Source: a virus
Taxonomy: Duplodnaviria > Heunggongvirae > Uroviricota > Caudoviricetes
IMG/VR virus record: IMGVR_UViG_2925939204_000003
Span: 1-32,291 of that record
Direction: 5' to 3' (one strand)
Length of the DNA stretch: 32,291 bases
How positions within the stretch are numbered: the stretch's first letter is position 1; every line of letters starts with the position of its first letter. Shown piece after piece: positions 2,321 to 10,850 of the stretch. Below the pieces are notes generated by a model, which did not search any database, was not told where the DNA came from, and worked only from the letters and a program-made list of their open reading frames with translations. The translations under genes and the position numbers were made by a program.

Positions 2321-4762
2321 TTAAAAATCAGCCTGACTCGGGATCAGTTTTTGCCAGATAGCTGAAACGTATTTTGCCTGGTAACGAGCGTCATCAAGTG
2401 CATTATGGCGCTCACCTTCGAATGGAATAGCCGTTCTGGCATCGAAGTCTATGGCTTTCCCCAGCTCAACGATTGTGCGTACATCGCGATCGTTGTAGTA
2501 ACGCCACGGGCAGGTGATCCCCTGCCGTTCGTATGAACGGCGCAAAATCGTGTTGTCGAAGTTGGCTCCATTTCCCCAGACCTGAACAAAAAATTCACCG
2601 GAGTTTTCGTCGATAAATTCCCGCAATTGTAACAGTGCATCATCTAACGGGATTTCATCGGTCATAATGGCAGATTGCGCTTCGCGTGATTGCTTAAGCC
2701 ACCATTTAATGGTGTCCCGATCAATGACTCCGCCAGCAGTTTCCAGATCGATAGTCTTACTAAATTCCGGTCCCACATCTCCGGTTTGCGGATCGAAAAA
2801 TATTGCACCTATTGAGATGATCGGGGCATCAGGATTTTTTCCCATGGTTTCAAGGTCGATCATTAGATGGTCACACGTCCTGCTGGTGGATGTGATTTCT
2901 TGATGACCGTTCACCTTAATTGAGTGATCTGCCGTCTCGCCAGTTTCATTATCGCTATCGTGATGCTGATTGCCGCCAGTGTTCTCCTTGTGTGGATGTT
3001 CAGAGCCTTCCATTTTCTCCGGATCATTTTCCTGAACTTCAACCTGATTCTCTTCATCGAATGTTTCCTGGTATGTTGCGTCGCCCATCACCGCGCCACA
3101 ATCAGGGCAGTTGCCGCCACCGCTCTGACCGCAGGCGGTGCTGACTTTTTCCGGTTCCTGTTGCGCTACTGGTTCGGATTGTTTCGTTTCTGGCTCGTTT
3201 TGTAACGCATTTGGGCTGTTTTGTTCCGCTTTTTGGTCGTTCCGTTCCGATTCATGCTGGTTCTGGTTCACAGAATCGCGAGTCTGGATCCCCTTGACCC
3301 ATTTCGGATCATTAGGGTCGCTAATCCCCTCAACAAATTCACCACGCGATACAGCAAGTAACTTATCGGCGTCAGGCTGGCTGATATTGGCTGTCTGCAT
3401 AATTTTGTTTACTTCGTCAGCGGTGACTTTTACTTGGTTAGCGGAACTCACCTGCGACTGAGCATCCAGCGACTGCGCGTTCTGGCCATGTTCAGTTGTA
3501 TCCGGTTCCATTGTTTCAGTTGTTGCCTGTTCACCTGCCATTGCGTCAGATGGTTGTGGTTTTTCTTCTTCTGTTTCACGCTCAGTAACCACCTCGCGGT
3601 TAATTTCTTCCAGGATATCTTTTTCCGGCGTATGCCGGGCAGCTGTGAGAGTTTCCTTGCTGGGGTTCTCGTGATCAGTTTCCGTCAAATAGGCGTTGAT
3701 ATACCCCTGAAGGCGTCCCGGGTAGTGATAAAATTCAGGGTGTGCGCTTCGGATAAGTGCAAAAATAGCGGCGCGGGAATAGTCCAGAATACCCGGGGTT
3801 GCACGAAGTGCTGCGGACCATTCTTTGAACGGACTTTCTTTGTTCAGGACTACTTCTTTTGCGCGACGATAAACGCTGCCCGGAATTTCATAAATATTAA
3901 AATCCATCGGAAGTGTGGCTGCTGCAATCTCCACATCCAGTGTGTCGAGGGTGTGTACTAAATTCGGATTGCGATCGGTTTTGTTCCCACCGCCAGCATT
4001 AGCACCGGAAGCCGTGCGGGTGATGCGTGAAACACGATTTCCTTTCATCCACTCTTTTGTCAGCAGACCCCGATCAGTGTAGTCAGCGTCCAGGTATGCT
4101 TCGAAAAAAGCAGTTATTAGTCCCAGGTCTGAATTACCAGGATTAGGGAAAACTTTGTCAGTGTCACGAACCAGTTTGTGGAGGTCGCGAATCTCCAGCG
4201 AGTCGAGCAGACTGGTTTTATGCGAAATAGCCAGGGCAGTAACAGCCGGTAGTTCTTCAGCCCGTGCAATGTGTAATGCCTGGAGTTCGTCGCGTGAAAC
4301 GTGCGTTACTGGTTTTTCGCTGCCGTGTTGAGCAAGCCAACGAATGGGCAGTTCCTGACCGGAGACAGGCAGAAGCATGCTCTCCTCAATCTCAGTCATG
4401 TCTTCGCCGTTGATGTTGGTATTGTCAGTGCTGGCTGGTTTGTCCTGAACAGAGGGGGAAGGGCCGATAAATGTCATTGTGATGCCATCTTTCCCGCCTT
4501 TTTCATAGCGGTTGCAGAATTCAGTATCAAACACGCCTTCTGGCGGAAGGTCGTCAACAACGGGCAAATTGACGCGGACGGGTTTTTTAAAGTCGTCTTC
4601 ATCATAATCGTTGTCATCCATTGCGGTAATGCAGCGGGAGATTGCAACAGATAATTTTTTTGCTGTAGTCCAGTAAAAACCACCTTTAATTCCCAGGCGT
4701 TTTCTTACTTTGTCATTTTTTGCTTCGCAATATAGTGCAAATTCTTCTTTATCAGTGCTCAT
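2321..4762 (-). CDS. Large early-operon protein with C-terminal DEDDh-type 3'-5' exonuclease domain (position of the Qin ydfE/exonuclease gene)
   Basis: 813 aa; C-terminal [19 protein letters not shown] and [13 protein letters not shown] resemble DnaQ-like exo motifs I-III; N-terminal two-thirds acidic/Q-rich, low complexity; SD GAGGT upstream. Confidence 0.6.
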
Positions 4763-4855: not shown

Positions 4856-5047
4856 TTAAAATCCTGCCGGGATTTCGTTATTATCCTGGTGAATAACTTT
4901 ATCGACCGGATAACAGTTGCCTGGAATTTTCTGTTCGGTTGCTGCTGCCATACATTCCTGCTTTGTTCTGTGAACACTGACTGCAATATCAACTGGCTCT
5001 CCGGAAACAAGAAAAACCGTCAGAATAAGTGCAAATACTGGATTCAT
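4856..5047 (-). CDS. ydfD: YdfD-like small membrane protein (63 aa)
   Basis: Internal start MNPVFALILTVFLVSG with hydrophobic N-terminus; start overlaps dicB stop (ATGA); matches Qin operon order. Confidence 0.55.
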   Translation of the reverse strand: MNPVFALILTVFLVSGEPVDIAVSVHRTKQECMAAATEQKIPGNCYPVDKVIHQDNNEIPAGF

Positions 5048-5232
5048 TGTGCACATCCTTTTGGCATCAGACGTAAACGGGCCAGCATTGAAACAATGCA
5101 TACTTTATTTAATAACTCCCGTTCGTGTTTTCTTTTGTTAATGGCATCTTCAGTAAATACAGGATTACTGATAGTGACACCAATTTCAAAACAACCTTCA
5201 GACGTATTAACGTTTGGTAATAACGTTTTCAT
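5044..5232 (-). CDS. dicB: Cell division inhibitor DicB (62 aa)
   Basis: MKTLLPNVNTSEGCFEIGVTISNPVFTEDAINKRKHERELLNKVCIVSMLARLRLMPKGCAQ matches recalled DicB nearly residue for residue. Confidence 0.75.
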   Translation of the reverse strand: MKTLLPNVNTSEGCFEIGVTISNPVFTEDAINKRKHERELLNKVCIVSMLARLRLMPKGCAQ

Positions 5233-5401: not shown

Positions 5402-5459
5402 AAAAAGGGCGGCAGAGCAGTCACGGAGTAAAACTGATACCGCCAAACGTCACCAGAAA
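5402..5459 (-). ncRNA. dicF: DicF small RNA (53 nt, 5407..5459) plus 3' U-tract of its intrinsic terminator
   Basis: Reverse complement reads UUUCUGGUGACGUUUGGCGGUAUCAGUUUUACUCCGUGACUGCUCUGCCGCCC then UUUUU; lies between ydfC and dicB as in Qin. Confidence 0.8.
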
Positions 5460-6605: not shown

Positions 6606-7280
6606 TCAGTCTAAGTATTGATGTATTTGTGAAACTTTACCTTTAATGGTGTAACCACCATTCAGTTCGATGGGTTTGTAAAGCGGATTCAGTGACAACA
6701 GATAGATGTTTGGTCCGTCAATCGCAACTTTTTTTAGTGTTACGTTTGGCGTTCCTTCCAATTGGATTAAGATTATTTTTCCCACCAGTTCTCTAATGTT
6801 ACTTGAGCATGGTGTGATCAGCACGGTAGATCCATCGGGGATGGTTGGGAGGCCGTTAGAGTTTGTCATCGCATCTCCCTCAACATGCAATAAAAAAGAG
6901 TTTTCAGCGGTTTTTGTCATGACATCAACCCAATTCTTAATGCCAGGAATCTCGGTTACTGGACAACTCATATCCCAATAACCAGCCTGTTCCCACGTTA
7001 AAACGGGCAACCGGGCGATGTTGTCACTAATGTAAAGATACTGATTCAGACGCAGATCATCGGTTTTATCGTGACCGTCCTTTCCATAAAGAATCCATTC
7101 AGGAGATTTGGAAAGCAATTTTGACAGTAGATGCAAATTCTCACCGTCAGGTTTTGAAGAGCCATTTTCCCATTTTGTTACGGATACACGAGATATGCCG
7201 ATTGCTTTCGCAACCTGCTGTTGGGTTAATCCAACGTCTTTTCGACGATTCCGAATACGTTCGCTGATAGTGTTTTTCAT
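6606..7280 (-). CDS. Prophage repressor, P22 C2 / lambda CI type (N-terminal HTH, C-terminal S24 LexA-like peptidase domain)
   Basis: N-terminus MKNTISERIRNRRK..LTQQQVAKAIGISRVSVTKWENG aligns with recalled P22 C2; S24 domain in C-terminal half; start set at M34 of the track ORF because the upstream extension is TTG-initiated and runs through the operators. Confidence 0.8.
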   Translation of the reverse strand: MKNTISERIRNRRKDVGLTQQQVAKAIGISRVSVTKWENGSSKPDGENLHLLSKLLSKSPEWILYGKDGHDKTDDLRLNQYLYISDNIARLPVLTWEQAGYWDMSCPVTEIPGIKNWVDVMTKTAENSFLLHVEGDAMTNSNGLPTIPDGSTVLITPCSSNIRELVGKIILIQLEGTPNVTLKKVAIDGPNIYLLSLNPLYKPIELNGGYTIKGKVSQIHQYLD

Positions 7281-7294
7281 GTAACCAATGTTAC
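7281..7294. promoter_or_regulatory. Operator GTAAC-CAAT-GTTAC abutting repressor start codon (OR3-like; PRM -10 TAACAT inside it, leaderless arrangement)
   Basis: Perfect 5-bp half-sites with 4-bp spacer immediately upstream of the ATG. Confidence 0.5.
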
Positions 7295-7315
7295 CACCAA
7301 GTGATGTTGCTATGG

Positions 7316-7321
7316 TTGACA
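7316..7321 (+). promoter_or_regulatory. Candidate PR -35 hexamer TTGACA for the cro-like gene
   Basis: Consensus -35 seen; no convincing -10 at 17-bp spacing, so promoter assignment is tentative. Confidence 0.35.
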
Positions 7322-7328
7322 TTGCTAT

Positions 7329-7342
7329 GTAACTATTGTTAC
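7329..7342. promoter_or_regulatory. Operator GTAAC-TATT-GTTAC in repressor/cro intergenic region
   Basis: Second copy of the same palindrome, 48 bp from the first. Confidence 0.5.
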
Positions 7343-7371
7343 TCTCCTGCTCGAAATAACAGGAGAGTTTT

Positions 7372-7587
7372 ATGTTCAAAGATGATGTTCTGCGCTATTT
7401 CAAAAAAAAGCGACTAGTAGCTGAGGCTCTTGGAATTTCACATGTGGCTGTTGTGCGGTGGCAAGCAGTTATTCCCAAACTTCGCGCAATGGAACTGGAT
7501 GAAATTACTAACGGTGAATTGAAATACAACCCAGAACTTTACAAGAAGCAGGATAGCACCTCGAACGAAGGAAAGAATGATTCATGA
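7372..7587 (+). CDS. Cro-like small HTH regulator (YdaS-like)
   Basis: 71 aa, divergent from repressor, SD AGGAGA upstream; HTH-like LVAEALGISHVAVVRW. Confidence 0.6.
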   Translation: MFKDDVLRYFKKKRLVAEALGISHVAVVRWQAVIPKLRAMELDEITNGELKYNPELYKKQDSTSNEGKNDS

Positions 7588-8009
7588 AAATCAAGCATGA
7601 ACACATCCGCATGGCGATGAATGCCTGGGCGCATCCGGACGGCGAAAAAGTACCGGCTGCGAAAATTACCAAAGCGTATTTCGAGCTGGGAATGACGTTC
7701 CCGGAACTGTATGACGACAGCCATCCGGAAGCCCTGGCTCGCAATACCCAGAAAATTTTCCGCTGGGTAGAGAAAGACACCCCTGATGCAGTTGAAAAAA
7801 TTCAGGCGTTGTTACCAGCGATCGAAAAGGCAATGCCACCTTTGCTGGTGGCCAGAATGCGCAGCCACAGTTCAGCTTATTTTCGGGAGCTGGTGGAGAC
7901 GCGGGAGCGACTGGTGAGAGACGCTGATGATTTTGTCGCAGTGGCAATCGCCGGTTTCAATCAGATGAACCGTGGTGGCCCGGCAGGAAATGCTGTGGCA
8001 GTACATTGA
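7584..8009 (+). CDS. YdaT-like regulatory protein (CII-position)
   Basis: 141 aa starting MKIKHEHI; start overlaps cro-like stop (ATGA). Confidence 0.5.
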   Translation: MKIKHEHIRMAMNAWAHPDGEKVPAAKITKAYFELGMTFPELYDDSHPEALARNTQKIFRWVEKDTPDAVEKIQALLPAIEKAMPPLLVARMRSHSSAYFRELVETRERLVRDADDFVAVAIAGFNQMNRGGPAGNAVAVH

Positions 8010-8080
8010 CTGACAATAGCCATATCGAATCGCTTCCGGCAACTCGTGAGTAAAAAGATTCGGTATCAGAAGAGGTGAGT

Positions 8081-9151
8081 ATGGCTAACGCTTGGCTCAG
8101 ATTATGGCATGACATGCCAAATGACCCTAAGTGGCGAACAATTGCCAGGGTGTCAGGGCAGCCAATTGCAACAGTGATGGCAGTGTATATCCACCTCCTG
8201 GTGAGCGCGTCACGAAATGTCACGCGAGGTCACATTGATGTCACGACAGAAGATTTAGCAAGTGCGCTCGACGTGACAGAAGAGGTAATTGATTCAATTT
8301 TGCAGACGATGCAGGGGCGGGTACTTGATGGTGATTTAATCACTGGATGGGAAAAACGCCAGGTGCTTAAAGAGGACAACGGCAATATTTCGCAAACCGC
8401 AAAATCTCCGGCAGAGCGCAAGAGGGCGCAGCGAGAGAGGGAAAGAAAGCGGGAACAAAATGGCGATTGTCACGGCGCGTCACGAAATGTCACGCACATG
8501 TCACGACGAGTCACGACAGATAAAGATACAGATAAAGATACAGATCAAGAAGATCAAAACACTATGGTCCATGGCGTAAAAAACGCCACGAACCAGGCAG
8601 GGGATGTTCAGACCGTCAATCCTGGTCAGCCAGCAGGCACGACACCGGAAGCCGATTCAGCGTATGCGCTGAAAGCCGATTCGGGCGCTGTGCAGCAGGT
8701 GATGACCCCAAGGCCGGAGCAATCACACCAACTGCAGCAGCCTGAAGCCGATTCCGCCATTCAGCGGGAAGCCGATCGGGTAGTCCCGGAAAACACCGGG
8801 CTGTCTGTGGGACGAGTGGATTATCCGGATGTGTTCGAACAGGTCTGGCGGGAGTACCCGTTGCGTGCCGGAGCAAACCCGAAGAAATCCGCTTTCAGTG
8901 CCTGGAAGGCCAGATTACGCGAGGGGGTGCCACCAGAGGCCATGCTGGATGGCGTGAGGCGTTACGCAAGATACTTGGCGGCTACCGGGAAAACGGGAAC
9001 GGAATTTGTTCAGCGAGCGACGACGTTTTTTGGACCGGACCGGAATTTTGAGAACCCCTGGTTGCTCCCGGTAAGCGGCACGAACAACCAGCGTTGTGTG
9101 AATCATATTTCTGAACCGGATAACGAAATTCCGCCGGGCTTCAGGGGGTAA
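8081..9151 (+). CDS. Replication initiator (lambda O-like organisation with origin inside the gene)
   Basis: Early-right position; iteron clusters and AT-rich tract inside ORF; D/K/T-rich linker DKDTDKDTDQEDQ; ATG 8081 with SD AGAGGTGAG preferred over GTG 8075. Confidence 0.55.
   Translation: MANAWLRLWHDMPNDPKWRTIARVSGQPIATVMAVYIHLLVSASRNVTRGHIDVTTEDLASALDVTEEVIDSILQTMQGRVLDGDLITGWEKRQVLKEDNGNISQTAKSPAERKRAQRERERKREQNGDCHGASRNVTHMSRRVTTDKDTDKDTDQEDQNTMVHGVKNATNQAGDVQTVNPGQPAGTTPEADSAYALKADSGAVQQVMTPRPEQSHQLQQPEADSAIQREADRVVPENTGLSVGRVDYPDVFEQVWREYPLRAGANPKKSAFSAWKARLREGVPPEAMLDGVRRYARYLAATGKTGTEFVQRATTFFGPDRNFENPWLLPVSGTNNQRCVNHISEPDNEIPPGFRG
8209..8245. repeat. Iteron cluster 1: four GTCACG/GTCACA repeats at about 10-bp spacing
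   Basis: Repeats at 8209, 8219, 8229, 8240. Confidence 0.55.
8469..8560. repeat. Iteron cluster 2 (five GTCACG repeats) followed by AT-rich tract with direct repeat GATAAAGATACA x2; putative replication origin
   Basis: Repeats at 8469, 8479, 8489, 8500, 8510, then AT-rich 8518..8560. Confidence 0.55.
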
Positions 9152-9191
9152 GTGTTAATTTCTGGTCATGAGGTAATTTTCAGGAGGACTT

Positions 9192-9617
9192 GTGGCAAAA
9201 GTTTTTACACAAGAAGAGCGGGAAAAAATTAAAGGGCAGGTTGTTGAACTCGTACGCCGGAGTGGGCGCGAGACGTTACGGCAACTGGAAGCCAAGACAG
9301 GTGCGACAAGATATCTGATGAGCGTTCTTGCCAGAGAGCTGGTTGCCAGTGGCGATGTATACAACTCTGGTTACGGGTTATTCCCGTCTGAACAGGCGCG
9401 TAAGGACTGGCAAAATGCCCGCAAAAAACTCTCAAGGGCAAAGGTGAAGAAACCTGCAGTGGTTGATCCGGACCTTATCTGGTCGTTACCAGACGGCGAA
9501 ATACGCCGCTACGACAGGCGCCTGAATATAATCTGTCGCGAGTGCCGGAAGAGCGAAGCTATGCAGCGTGTACTGGCATTTTATCAAGGAAATGTTAGGT
9601 ATTTTAGACGTTACTAG
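9192..9617 (+). CDS. Hypothetical protein
   Basis: 141 aa ORF, GTG start with strong SD AGGAGG; no family recognised. Confidence 0.45.
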   Translation: MAKVFTQEEREKIKGQVVELVRRSGRETLRQLEAKTGATRYLMSVLARELVASGDVYNSGYGLFPSEQARKDWQNARKKLSRAKVKKPAVVDPDLIWSLPDGEIRRYDRRLNIICRECRKSEAMQRVLAFYQGNVRYFRRY

Positions 9618-9770
9618 ATTAAAGAGCATTAGTTCAGATGTGAATTGACATTTTCATGGCGCAGGGTAGAGCCAGCGTGGTTGTCCGCTTTGCGTCAAAA
9701 CCAGATATTACCAGATTTAGACATATATTCCCGATAGCCCTGCTCTGATGCTACACTCTGTGCTATTTTC

Positions 9771-10457
9771 ATGACCCCAATAAAAATATTTATGACTATT
9801 GCTGATTTCAAACGGCCTAAATTGGAGCTCCCAAACGGGGCAAACAAACTACTACTGCACTCTTGCTGTGCTCCATGTTCCGGTGAAGTGATGGAGGCGC
9901 TTCAGGCCTCGGGAATCGACTACACCATCTTTTTCTACAACCCGAACATTCATCCTCAGAAAGAGTATTTAATTCGTAAGGATGAAAATATTCGCTTTGC
10001 TGAACAACACGGCGTGCCGTTTATCGATGCTGATTACGACACCGACAACTGGTTTGAACGTGCCAAAGGAATGGAATGGGAGCCTGAGAGGGGGATCCGT
10101 TGTACCATGTGTTTTGACATGCGTTTTGAGCGGACAGCGTTGTACGCTGCTGAAAATGGTTTCAGTGTGATCAGCAGTTCACTGGGCATTTCACGCTGGA
10201 AAAATATGCAGCAGGTTAACGAGTGTGGGCGGCGAGCTGTTGCGCATTATCCGGGTATGGTGTACTGGGATTATAACTGGCGCAAGCAGGGCGGCTCGTC
10301 CCGTATGATTGAAATCAGCAAGCGCGAAAAATTCTATCAGCAGGAATATTGTGGCTGTGTGTATTCTCTGCGCGATACCAATCTACACCGCAAATCTCAG
10401 GGACGCCCTCTTATCAAAATTGGCCAACTCCACTACGGAAAAGAAGAGAAGGAGTGA
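9771..10457 (+). CDS. DUF208 family protein, epoxyqueuosine reductase QueH-like
   Basis: Motifs [44 protein letters not shown] match recalled QueH Cys pattern; start may be the second Met (9792). Confidence 0.6.
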
Positions 10458-10584
10458 TTTTATGGATCACCTTTCTGATTGATTTCATATTGGCGAGGTG
10501 ACGTGAGTTAAGTAGAATGGCTGCGGGTGCTTGAGGCTATCTGTCTCAGGCATGAACACTGAAAGGCAGATAGAGAAAAGCCCC

Positions 10585-10646
10585 AGTTAACATTACGCGT
10601 CCGGCAAGACGCTTAACATTAATCTGAGGCTCAATCTATGAACGGC
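10585..10646 (-). ncRNA. Predicted Sok-like antisense RNA of the hok locus
   Basis: Minus-strand promoter -35 TTGCCT (10676..10681) and -10 TAACCT (10653..10658) at 17-bp spacing, placed as in plasmid R1 hok/sok; extent of RNA approximate. Confidence 0.3.
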
Positions 10647-10694
10647 AAATCTAGGTTAGCCTCTTACGTGCCGAAAGGCAAGGAGAAGCAGGCT

Positions 10695-10850
10695 ATGAAG
10701 CAGCAAAAGGCGATGTTAATCGCCCTGATCGTCATCTGTTTAACCGTCATTGTGACGGCACTGGTAACGAGGAAAGACCTCTGCGAGGTACGAATCCGAA
10801 CCGGCCAGACGGAGGTCACTGTCTTCACAGCTTACGAACCTGAGGAGTAA
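10695..10850 (+). CDS. hok: Hok-family type I toxin (51 aa)
   Basis: MKQQKAMLIALIVICLTVIVTALVTRKDLCEVRIRTGQTEVTVFTAYEPEE matches Hok (HokD/RelF-like); SD AAGGAGAAG; conserved upstream leader motif TAGCCTCTTAC. Confidence 0.75.
   Translation: MKQQKAMLIALIVICLTVIVTALVTRKDLCEVRIRTGQTEVTVFTAYEPEE

Follow-up and report, generated by a model that had tools for sequence, protein, structure and literature searches.

A predicted iteron-type replication origin inside the initiator gene of a Qin/lambdoid prophage of Escherichia coli

Why does a phage gene hold, within its own coding sequence, two clusters of the same hexamer spaced by one turn of the helix? This question is raised by a stretch of 32,291 nt of DNA from an Escherichia coli prophage of the Qin/lambdoid type (hereafter the window, meaning the whole stretch analysed), in which the hexamer GTCACG is repeated between positions 8205 and 8560, inside the gene of a 356-aa replication initiator. 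According to the data presented below, this region is very probably the replication origin of the prophage, consisting of iterons and a DNA unwinding element, and it would be bound by the N-terminal domain (N-domain) of the protein that the same gene encodes. An earlier note, made from the letters of the DNA, had already proposed an origin within the initiator gene, and this proposal now receives strong support from comparative evidence: the layout is conserved in distant genomes, the repeats are under selection at the DNA level, their core changes in concert, AT-rich codons are used against the genomic GC content, and a recombination junction lies at the end of the AT-rich tract.

Two iteron arrays and an AT-rich tract within one gene

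The two arrays (Table 1) share an exact 21-bp block, GCGCGTCACGAAATGTCACGC, located at 8205-8225 in array 1 and at 8475-8495 in array 2, from which the peptides SASRNVTRGH and GASRNVTHMS are translated, respectively. Array 1 encodes the loop SRNVTRGHIDVT, predicted to lie between helix 29-45 and helix 56-63, in a part of the structural model with lower confidence, and array 2 encodes the beginning of a disordered linker. Most of this anatomy had been described in the earlier note and was recovered by inspection of the sequence, pattern scan and translation. This is the case of the two clusters with helical-turn spacing, the shared core of about 20 bp (which in fact is exact over 21 bp), the near-duplicate peptides followed by a linker rich in Asp, Lys and Thr, and the AT-rich tract with a 12-bp direct repeat after the second cluster. 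The wording "duplicated iteron clusters", however, has to be amended, because the two arrays are real but do not derive from a recent duplication; they represent an old two-array layout of the whole initiator family.

Nine of the 21 copies of GTCACG/CGTGAC found in the window fall within 310 bp, while in 2000 dinucleotide-preserving shuffles the densest cluster of this length holds 1.95 copies on average and five at most. Regarding the spacing, the window has five adjacent pairs on the + strand at 10/11 bp versus a mean of 0.006 and a maximum of one in the shuffled sequences, and no other hexamer of the window shows more than one such pair. A motif scan for further GTCACG arrays, suggested in the earlier note, detected none in the window apart from the two in the initiator gene. 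An origin of the repeats by chance is excluded by these shuffle statistics. Neither a DnaA box nor an integration host factor (IHF) consensus was detected in 7900-9300. An internal promoter or terminator was also considered and discarded; the sole promoter-like match (8493-8466, - strand) is formed by the cores of the iterons, and such matches are fewer than expected from shuffles.

The AT-rich tract starts directly after array 2 with the exact 12-bp repeat ACAGATAAAGAT, present twice at 8516-8539. Its GC content drops to 0.33, and it contains two GATC sites, at 8543 and 8552. The 40-mer at 8520-8559 is the least stable duplex not only of the gene but of the whole operon from Cro to DUF977, and it ranks within the top 0.07% of all 40-mers of the window for duplex instability. 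The AT-richness of the tract is maintained in relatives of the gene. In 25 genes, the 36 nt that follow the last array-2 unit have a GC content of 0.14-0.47 whatever the genome, as in locus L018 (0.28 in the tract of a gene with a GC content of 0.69). Codon choice follows the same trend, with Asp codons GAT:GAC used 72:2 in the tract versus 231:284 elsewhere in these genes, and Lys codons AAA:AAG used 59:11 versus 192:181. Moreover, the DNA motif (C/T)AGATAA(A)GATAA is kept even when it is read in other frames, where it encodes LDKIREE, DRLDKRRVDKE or PQIREDKK instead of DKDKDK. Judged from these sequences, the pattern is typical of an unwinding element embedded in the coding sequence of a linker for which many sequences are acceptable. 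Likewise, the O protein of lambda still works in trans when its gene has in-frame deletions in the AT-rich region (PMC6022878). Another form of the tract is observed in L031, a metagenome-assembled genome (MAG) of Ventosimonas, in which (GATAAA)8 occupies the array-2/tract position (3375-3422). No recognisable hexamer arrays were found in L031 and L026, two relatives from genomes of 34% GC, so that either their iterons have diverged past recognition or their arrangement is a different one.

The tract also bears on the possibility that the arrays are sites of the initiator with a regulatory role only (autoregulation, transcription roadblock, handcuffing, or titration/exclusion), with replication starting elsewhere. 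Origin-plus-control-iteron arrangements exist in iteron plasmids, and the two separated arrays resemble them; furthermore, array 1 lies 230 bp away from the AT-rich tract, inside the region coding for the folded domain, and the presence of up to five copies of the gene per E. coli genome makes cross-talk between prophages plausible. Nevertheless, array 2 abuts the strongest site of duplex instability in the operon, and the maintenance of the tract at the DNA level fits an unwinding element, which a pure operator does not need. An exclusively regulatory function is consequently considered improbable, also because the window holds no other GTCACG array and because the homologous position is the origin in lambda, P22/L and SPP1 (PMC6022878, PMC8022706, PMC6316719).

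The right end of the tract coincides with a junction between an N-domain-plus-origin module and exchangeable C-terminal modules. When an E. coli genome matches only part of the gene, the match spans either 1-464 or 482-1075, and in the alignment with loci L002 and L003, homology is lost right after ACAGATAAAGATACAGATAAAGA, at about 8540. This exact coincidence between the end of mosaic homology and the end of the tract would be expected if the iterons and AGATAAAGATA were a module-boundary linker, kept for homologous recombination and not for replication. Such a linker would leave unexplained the period of 10-11 bp, the invariant cores with free spacers and the concerted changes of the core, and the arrays are conserved in distant genomes that do not share the flanking modules. 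As a conserved origin would be expected to give rise to crossovers as a side effect, the recombination linker is given very little credit here, and the origin remains the preferred reading of the region.

Just to the right of the tract, an inverted repeat at 8565-8595 folds as DNA with -8.7 kcal/mol (z = -3.1; an equally good fold is reached by 2 of 200 shuffles). At a similar offset, the L002-type variant has a perfect palindrome of another sequence, CGCGCACGTGCGCG. In ori-lambda there is also a palindrome to the right of the AT-rich region. The hairpin of the window is only a possible part of the origin.

Selection on the repeats and the protein that would read them

The conservation of the arrays was studied in 28 loci that encode relatives of the N-terminal 160 residues of the initiator and come from other species, including Escherichia albertii and members of Serratia, Rahnella, Pantoea, Erwinia, Enterobacter, Pseudomonas, Bordetella, Acidovorax, Chromobacterium, Aquitalea and Sphingomonas. 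These relatives span gamma-, beta- and alpha-proteobacteria, with protein identities of 43-87%. In nearly all of them, the arrays occupy the same positions (nt ~117-181 and ~377-476 of the gene). Array 1 is found at the same gene position in at least 19 distant relatives, the position of array 2 holds three to six units, and the inverted core appears at the homologous position in many of the relatives.

The 19 genes of the GTCACG type provide the evidence for selection at the DNA level. Their 155 units are split 47/64/44 over the three reading frames, and the core encodes S-R, V-T or G-H depending on the register. The core is invariant, and the spacers of 4-5 bp carry 0.1-0.5 bit. Inside the cores, synonymous positions are fixed or nearly so (Val is encoded by GTC in 64/64 cases, Ser by TCA in 47/47 and Thr by ACG in 57/64), while usage is mixed elsewhere in the same genes. 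Variants from E. coli with 84-88% DNA identity keep all array-2 cores and differ in the spacers; in one case a +1/-1 pair of indels shifts the frame between two array-2 cores, converting SRNVTHMS into SRICHDMS. In variants from E. coli and E. albertii, array 1 holds two additional units, contained in a 21-bp insertion. As units are placed in all three frames, synonymous sites are fixed in the cores and the spacers are free, the repeats are a signal of the DNA and not of the protein. The two near-duplicate peptide segments could be taken for a peptide motif (SRNVT and similar), or the repeats for an artefact of chance or low complexity, but the chances of this are negligible in view of the shuffle statistics, and the protein-repeat explanation is ruled out by the frame analysis and the fixed synonymous positions.

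The core itself depends on the lineage. It is GTCACG in most genes, GTAACG in L020, L023, L028 and L030, and CGAACG in L027 and L029, and each gene uses the same core in both of its arrays. The change can be followed in a trio of genes from Erwinia, Pantoea and Enterobacter with 82% DNA identity, one of which has GTCACG in the units where, at homologous positions, the remaining two have GTAACG. The inverted copies of L023 have followed this change, with CGTTAC in place of CGTGAC. This homogenisation of dispersed units is what would be expected if a single protein reads all of them.

Regarding the identity of this protein, homologues of the YdaT-like, Cro, CI and DUF977 proteins are absent from 26 of the 28 distant loci. 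In addition, the core differs within Pseudomonas, being GTCACG in L012, L022 and L025 and CGAACG in L027, and it also varies among Enterobacterales. Since the neighbours are not conserved and the core varies within a host genus, the N-domain is the only constant partner of the repeats, an argument by exclusion. The YdaT-like gene does accompany the initiator gene in all E. coli and E. albertii variants examined, and binding by the N-domain is something that we infer, so that a host factor or one of the neighbouring regulators (cII/YdaT-like or Cro-like) could be proposed as the binding protein instead. This is most improbable, because the distant loci keep the arrays in the absence of homologues of these neighbours, and the differences within Pseudomonas and Enterobacterales argue against a conserved host factor.

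Some members of the family present an additional iteron unit. In L020, L023 and L024, this unit is located at gene nt ~224, where the sequence codes for the initial turn of the presumed recognition helix (TER[H/N]V), and in alignment columns 104-109 the residue of these three genes goes with the core, His with GTCACG and Asn with GTAACG. The change of C to A in the core is silent in frame 0 and replaces His by Asn in frame 1; in frame 2 it gives rise to a TAA stop, due to which genes of the GTAACG type are unable to place units in the latter frame.

The initiator, its known counterparts and its tail

The assignment of the 356-aa protein as an initiator is based on its position and its profile matches. 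It occupies the position of lambda O, downstream of CI/Cro/cII-like genes, and over its full length it matches PHROG 3729 ("replication initiation protein"), with an E value of 1e-256. Its N-terminal half also matches PHROGs named "replisome organizer", and its C-terminal half matches "DnaD-like helicase loader", "primosomal protein" and "replication protein". The labels found in the sources, "phage replisome organizer", "DNA replication protein O" and "Primosomal protein I", go in the same direction. No Pfam family was detected at E <= 0.01 for the full protein or for 39 relatives of its N-domain.

A structural model was obtained with AF2 using an alignment of 64 homologues (a single-sequence model, with a pLDDT of 45, was not used). 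It predicts with confidence an N-domain (residues 1-92) holding a helix-turn-helix and a beta wing, followed by a basic helix at 110-126, a disordered region at 131-243, a helical C-terminal domain (C-domain) at 245-330, and a less ordered tail. The predicted winged-helix structure may resemble the N-terminal domain of DnaD and plasmid RepA, and the fold matches in BFVD include "replisome organizer" and phage DnaD-like proteins; according to these similarities, the initiator is probably a winged-helix protein of the replisome organiser-like kind. Foldseek searches of the PDB with the full-length model returned nothing significant, and querying the PDB with a profile of the C-domain yielded no meaningful match and no DnaT chain. 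The C-domain has the conserved core YPxRAGxNPK...ATGKTGTEFVxQAxTFFGPD. The disordered linker contains a 36-nt direct repeat (8645-8680 and 8741-8776, 75% identical and 96 bp apart) that encodes PEADSA...(K/R)(A/E)ADS and is present in three copies in phage phiSTEC1589-Stx1c (L004, 2497-2610); judging by its sequence, it may be a repeated short protein-binding motif.

The domains are combined in a modular manner. In other prophages, the same N-domain and origin are joined to a DnaT-type domain (PF17948) and followed by a gene of the lambda P family, while in phiSTEC1589-Stx1c the C-domain of the window is found on a different N-domain and is followed by a DnaC-like gene. In this phiSTEC1589-type initiator, no comparable array was detected by a repeat finder. 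By analogy, this mosaic pattern matches the logic of lambda, with an N-terminal module specific for the origin and a C-terminal module specific for the loader.

The location of an origin inside an initiator gene is a known design, described for lambda O and ori-lambda (PMC6022878), for gene 18 of P22 and phage L (PMC8022706), and for gp38 and oriL of SPP1 (PMC6316719). As in lambda O and in gene 18 of P22 and L, the predicted origin of the window lies at the junction between the parts coding for the N- and C-domains. The window shares with lambda the position of the gene after CI/Cro/cII and the arrangement of initiator sites with an AT-rich region for unwinding on their right, whose translation is a linker that tolerates deletions (PMC6022878). 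P22 and phage L resemble it in that iterons vary from phage to phage and move together with the N-domain; in phage L they are six repeats of 11 bp (PMC8022706). Despite these similarities, the initiator is not a homologue of lambda O, as neither the protein nor any of the 39 relatives has a Pfam match; "DNA replication protein O" is only a depositor's label. The form of the sites is also different, with four contiguous dyad iterons of 18-19 bp, each bound by a dimer, in lambda versus asymmetric 6-bp cores every 10-11 bp in the window, distributed in two arrays with about 230 bp between them, of which one falls in the fold-coding part. Finally, contrary to lambda, no P-type loader gene follows the initiator gene of the window.

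SPP1 gp38 (G38P) is a two-domain organiser as well, with an N-terminal DNA-binding domain that binds the direct repeats of oriL inside gene 38, beside an AT-rich unwinding element (PMC6316719). The isolated N-domain of the window aligns with positions 1-119 of the 121 of PF09681, the Pfam family of replisome organisers to which gp38 belongs, with 16.4 bits against a cut-off of 23.3 and an E value of 0.009, and none of the 39 relatives matches this family. SPP1 differs in host (Firmicutes versus Proteobacteria) and in that it encodes its own loader gp39 and helicase gp40, while the prophage of the window encodes neither; many relatives have a P-like, DnaC-like or DnaB gene downstream of the initiator gene. 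The RepA_N initiators, such as RepA of pSK41/pTZ2162 and RepA of the PLE of Vibrio cholerae, are alike in protein logic, but their iterons are mostly semi-palindromic around a poly-A tract (PMC7145576) and not asymmetric hexamers, and they belong to plasmids and satellites and not to temperate phages. Pfam RepA_N was matched neither by the initiator nor by the 39 relatives.

The protein ends in a DnaT-like tail. In phmmer searches, the last 22-24 residues match the extreme C-termini of the DnaT chains 6aep, 2ru8 and 9zbt (E. coli DnaT, 2ru8, shares 14 of the last 22), and the tail corresponds to positions 156-179 of the 179 of NCBIfam DnaT. It is nearly identical to the flexible tail of DnaT (SEPDxxIPPGFRG), a segment of 20 residues on a three-helix DNA-binding domain (PMC5778457). 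The window protein has no DnaT N-terminal oligomerisation domain and no detectable PF17948, the ssDNA-binding domain of DnaT, which is carried by sister variants of the initiator of the L002/L006 type. DnaT also differs in that it is recruited by the structure of the fork via PriA and PriB, and not by sequence-specific sites (PMC13377028). Among homologues of the C-domain, only enterobacterial versions have the tail, and the C-domains that bear it are of at least three unrelated types, one of them being that of the mEp460/HannyBb initiator.

The earlier note had also pointed out that the initiator gene is followed by a 141-aa ORF and not by a helicase-loader gene, an observation that holds, the ORF being a DUF977/Ren-like gene. 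In fact, the annotation of an identical prophage contains no gene for a helicase, a loader or a primase. DUF977 directly follows the initiator gene in 77 of 80 IMG/VR loci with this C-domain, all near-identical E. coli loci that inform about constancy and not about diversity. The same order is found in phage Tritos, and mEp460 and HannyBb also have DUF977 directly after the initiator gene and no loader gene. Initiators with the tail are followed by a DnaC-like gene (L004, L023 and, weakly, L030) or lack a loader (the window, L015, mEp460 and HannyBb), while those without it are mostly followed by a gene of the lambda P family, or by DnaB or a primase-helicase. None of the approximately eight tail-bearing cases, which are not phylogenetically independent, is paired with a P-type loader. 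This pairing with DnaC-type loaders or with none suggests the use of the helicase-loading machinery of the host, and the tail might tentatively be regarded, with somewhat less than even confidence, as the part that connects the initiator to a pathway of the host that depends on DnaC, whether by direct use of DnaB-DnaC or by way of the PriA/PriB/DnaT primosome.

Two observations are related to this tail. In mEp460_ev081 (L114, 2928-3099) and also in HannyBb (L115), an unrelated 321-aa initiator with a DnaT-like tail has a mid-gene array of five repeats of ~23 bp, spaced by 23-24 bp and followed by A-rich 12-mers. The design formed by mid-gene iterons, an A-rich tract, the tail and no loader therefore recurs in these phages with an unrelated initiator. 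The window also encodes a DUF1482/YdfD-like early-left protein (4856-5047, - strand; longest ORF 4856-5101) that ends in ...VIHQDNNEIPAGF, like the EIPPGFRG of the tail, and from this similarity in sequence it may address the same host partner as the initiator.

In the mechanism that we infer, the N-domain would bind the 6-bp GTCACG cores as monomers, head to tail and on one face of the helix, as suggested by the period of 10-11 bp, occupying both arrays. The nucleoprotein complex, possibly by looping or wrapping the ~230 bp between the arrays, would destabilise the (GATAAA/GATACA)n tract. The C-domain and the DnaT-like tail would then bring in DnaB-DnaC or the PriA/PriB/DnaT restart primosome, and with this recruitment of the host loading machinery no phage loader gene would be needed. 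Since the predicted origin is contained in the stretch that codes for the linker, the N-domain would be passed on together with its sites as a single specificity module, and recombination immediately to the right of the AT-rich tract would exchange the C-terminal modules.

Several points weigh against parts of this interpretation. The predicted recognition helix, EEVIDSILQTM, is acidic, and iterons located within the gene are automatically inherited together with the N-domain, which by itself is no proof of binding. The arrays are separated by a variable distance (last core to first core, about 219-247 bp), with no fixed helical phasing evident, and array 1, being inside the fold-coding part, could be regulatory and not belong to the minimal origin. 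The copy of the prophage in E. coli strain EBJ003 has an integrase annotated as frameshifted, so that this copy may be unable to excise and perhaps not inducible. With respect to the tail, its association with the type of loader is affected by the number and lack of independence of the cases mentioned above, the recruitment of DnaB/DnaC by DnaT has been left open (PMC13377028), and neither a binding partner nor a function of the DnaT tail was found in the searchable literature. Finally, no description of a GTCACG-iteron origin or of this initiator family was found in the open-access literature.

A further proposal, which is regarded as rather doubtful, joins two ideas. The first one is that the tail is a portable motif to plug into the host, by means of which unrelated enterobacterial phage initiators would gain direct access to DnaC-DnaB or PriA/PriB/DnaT, giving a lambdoid module without loader; if true, a function would be assigned to the so far unexplained tail of DnaT. 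The second one is that array 1 couples the site and its reader, so that a change in the site could alter the reading head in the same mutational step. This idea is based on the fact that array 1 encodes R/N/H/T residues of the predicted winged-helix domain, and that, in the extra unit of the Erwinia/Pantoea/Enterobacter genes, His is replaced by Asn exactly with the change from GTCACG to GTAACG.

Genomic setting and use of the finding

Table 1. Features of the initiator gene and its surroundings, in window coordinates
Feature	Position	Strand	Remarks
LexA/S24-type repressor	6606-7379	-	Upstream neighbour
P22-Cro-like gene	7372-7587		Upstream of initiator
cII/YdaT-like gene	7584-8009		Immediately upstream of initiator
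Replication initiator gene	8081..9151	+	356 aa; ATG 8081 in RefSeq; alternative GTG start 8075
N-terminal domain, predicted winged helix	8081..8356	+	aa 1-92; presumed iteron-binding
Iteron array 1	8209..8245	+	GTCACG at 8209, 8219, 8240; degenerate GTCACA at 8229; spacing 10/10/11 bp
Inverted core	8272..8277	-	CGTGAC on + strand; encodes D-V-T of ALDVTE
Iteron array 2	8469..8515	+	GTCACG at 8469, 8479, 8489, 8500, 8510; spacing 10/10/11/10 bp
AT-rich tract, presumed unwinding element	8516..8560	+	ACAGATAAAGAT x2, then ACAGATCAAGAAGATCAAAAC; encodes TDKDTDKDTDQEDQ
Mosaic recombination junction	8538..8556	.	Between N-domain-plus-origin module and exchangeable C-terminal modules
Inverted repeat, hairpin-forming	8565..8595	.	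Just right of AT tract; found on - strand by terminator-like scan
C-terminal helical domain	8813..9070	+	aa 245-330; pLDDT 91-98; presumed helicase/primosome-recruiting
DnaT-like C-terminal tail	9086..9148	+	aa 336-356, RCVNHISEPDNEIPPGFRG
DUF977/Ren-like (LygF) gene	9192..9617	+	141 aa; not a helicase loader; Pfam DUF977 E 1.6e-28; PHROG 142 "Ren-like exclusion protein"

The initiator gene (8075-9151) is 100% identical to a region of the chromosome of E. coli strain EBJ003, where the identical prophage adjoins tRNA-Ser and mtfA. Matches to this gene are frequent in the species, being present in 2698 of 5426 E. coli genomes and covering at least 80% of the gene in 1646 of them (~30% of complete genomes). 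As single genomes have up to five places that match the gene, cross-talk or incompatibility between the origins of co-resident prophages is possible. This type of initiator is also found in isolated temperate phages, with relatives across Proteobacteria.

Even though the origin design was already known, the initiator family, the form of the sites and the C-terminal module with a DnaT tail and no loader are different. The papers on the "Eru" types of Stx phages classify replication modules but do not treat origins, and RefSeq mostly labels the initiator gene as "hypothetical protein", its N-domain being devoid of a Pfam family. The result is a well-supported annotation with two testable side leads, which will not surprise a specialist in phage replication. 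For annotators, it offers an origin signature that consists of the GTCACG core, two arrays and a (GATAAA)n tract, and for experimenters, a compact cis/trans replicon. The natural specificity variants GTCACG, GTAACG and CGAACG constitute material to study how the specificity between initiator and iteron changes, and the link between tail and loader is a testable lead on helicase capture without a loader and on the role of the DnaT tail.

After DUF977, the gene order is QueH, hokD/sok, DUF968, RusA and Q. In an Rfam scan of the window, only two RNA elements were detected, with none in 7300-9700: the small RNA (sRNA) DicF (5407-5458, - strand, 76.7 bits), upstream of dicB, and the antitoxin RNA sok (10525-10700, + strand, 111.9 bits), which overlaps the hokD/mok leader. 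Both are typical cargo of Qin-type prophages. The gene located just after DUF977 (9771-10457) encodes the epoxyqueuosine reductase QueH (Pfam E 1e-65) and is kept at this place in several E. coli prophages (L001, L002); within the early-right region, it appears to be phage cargo that serves tRNA modification.

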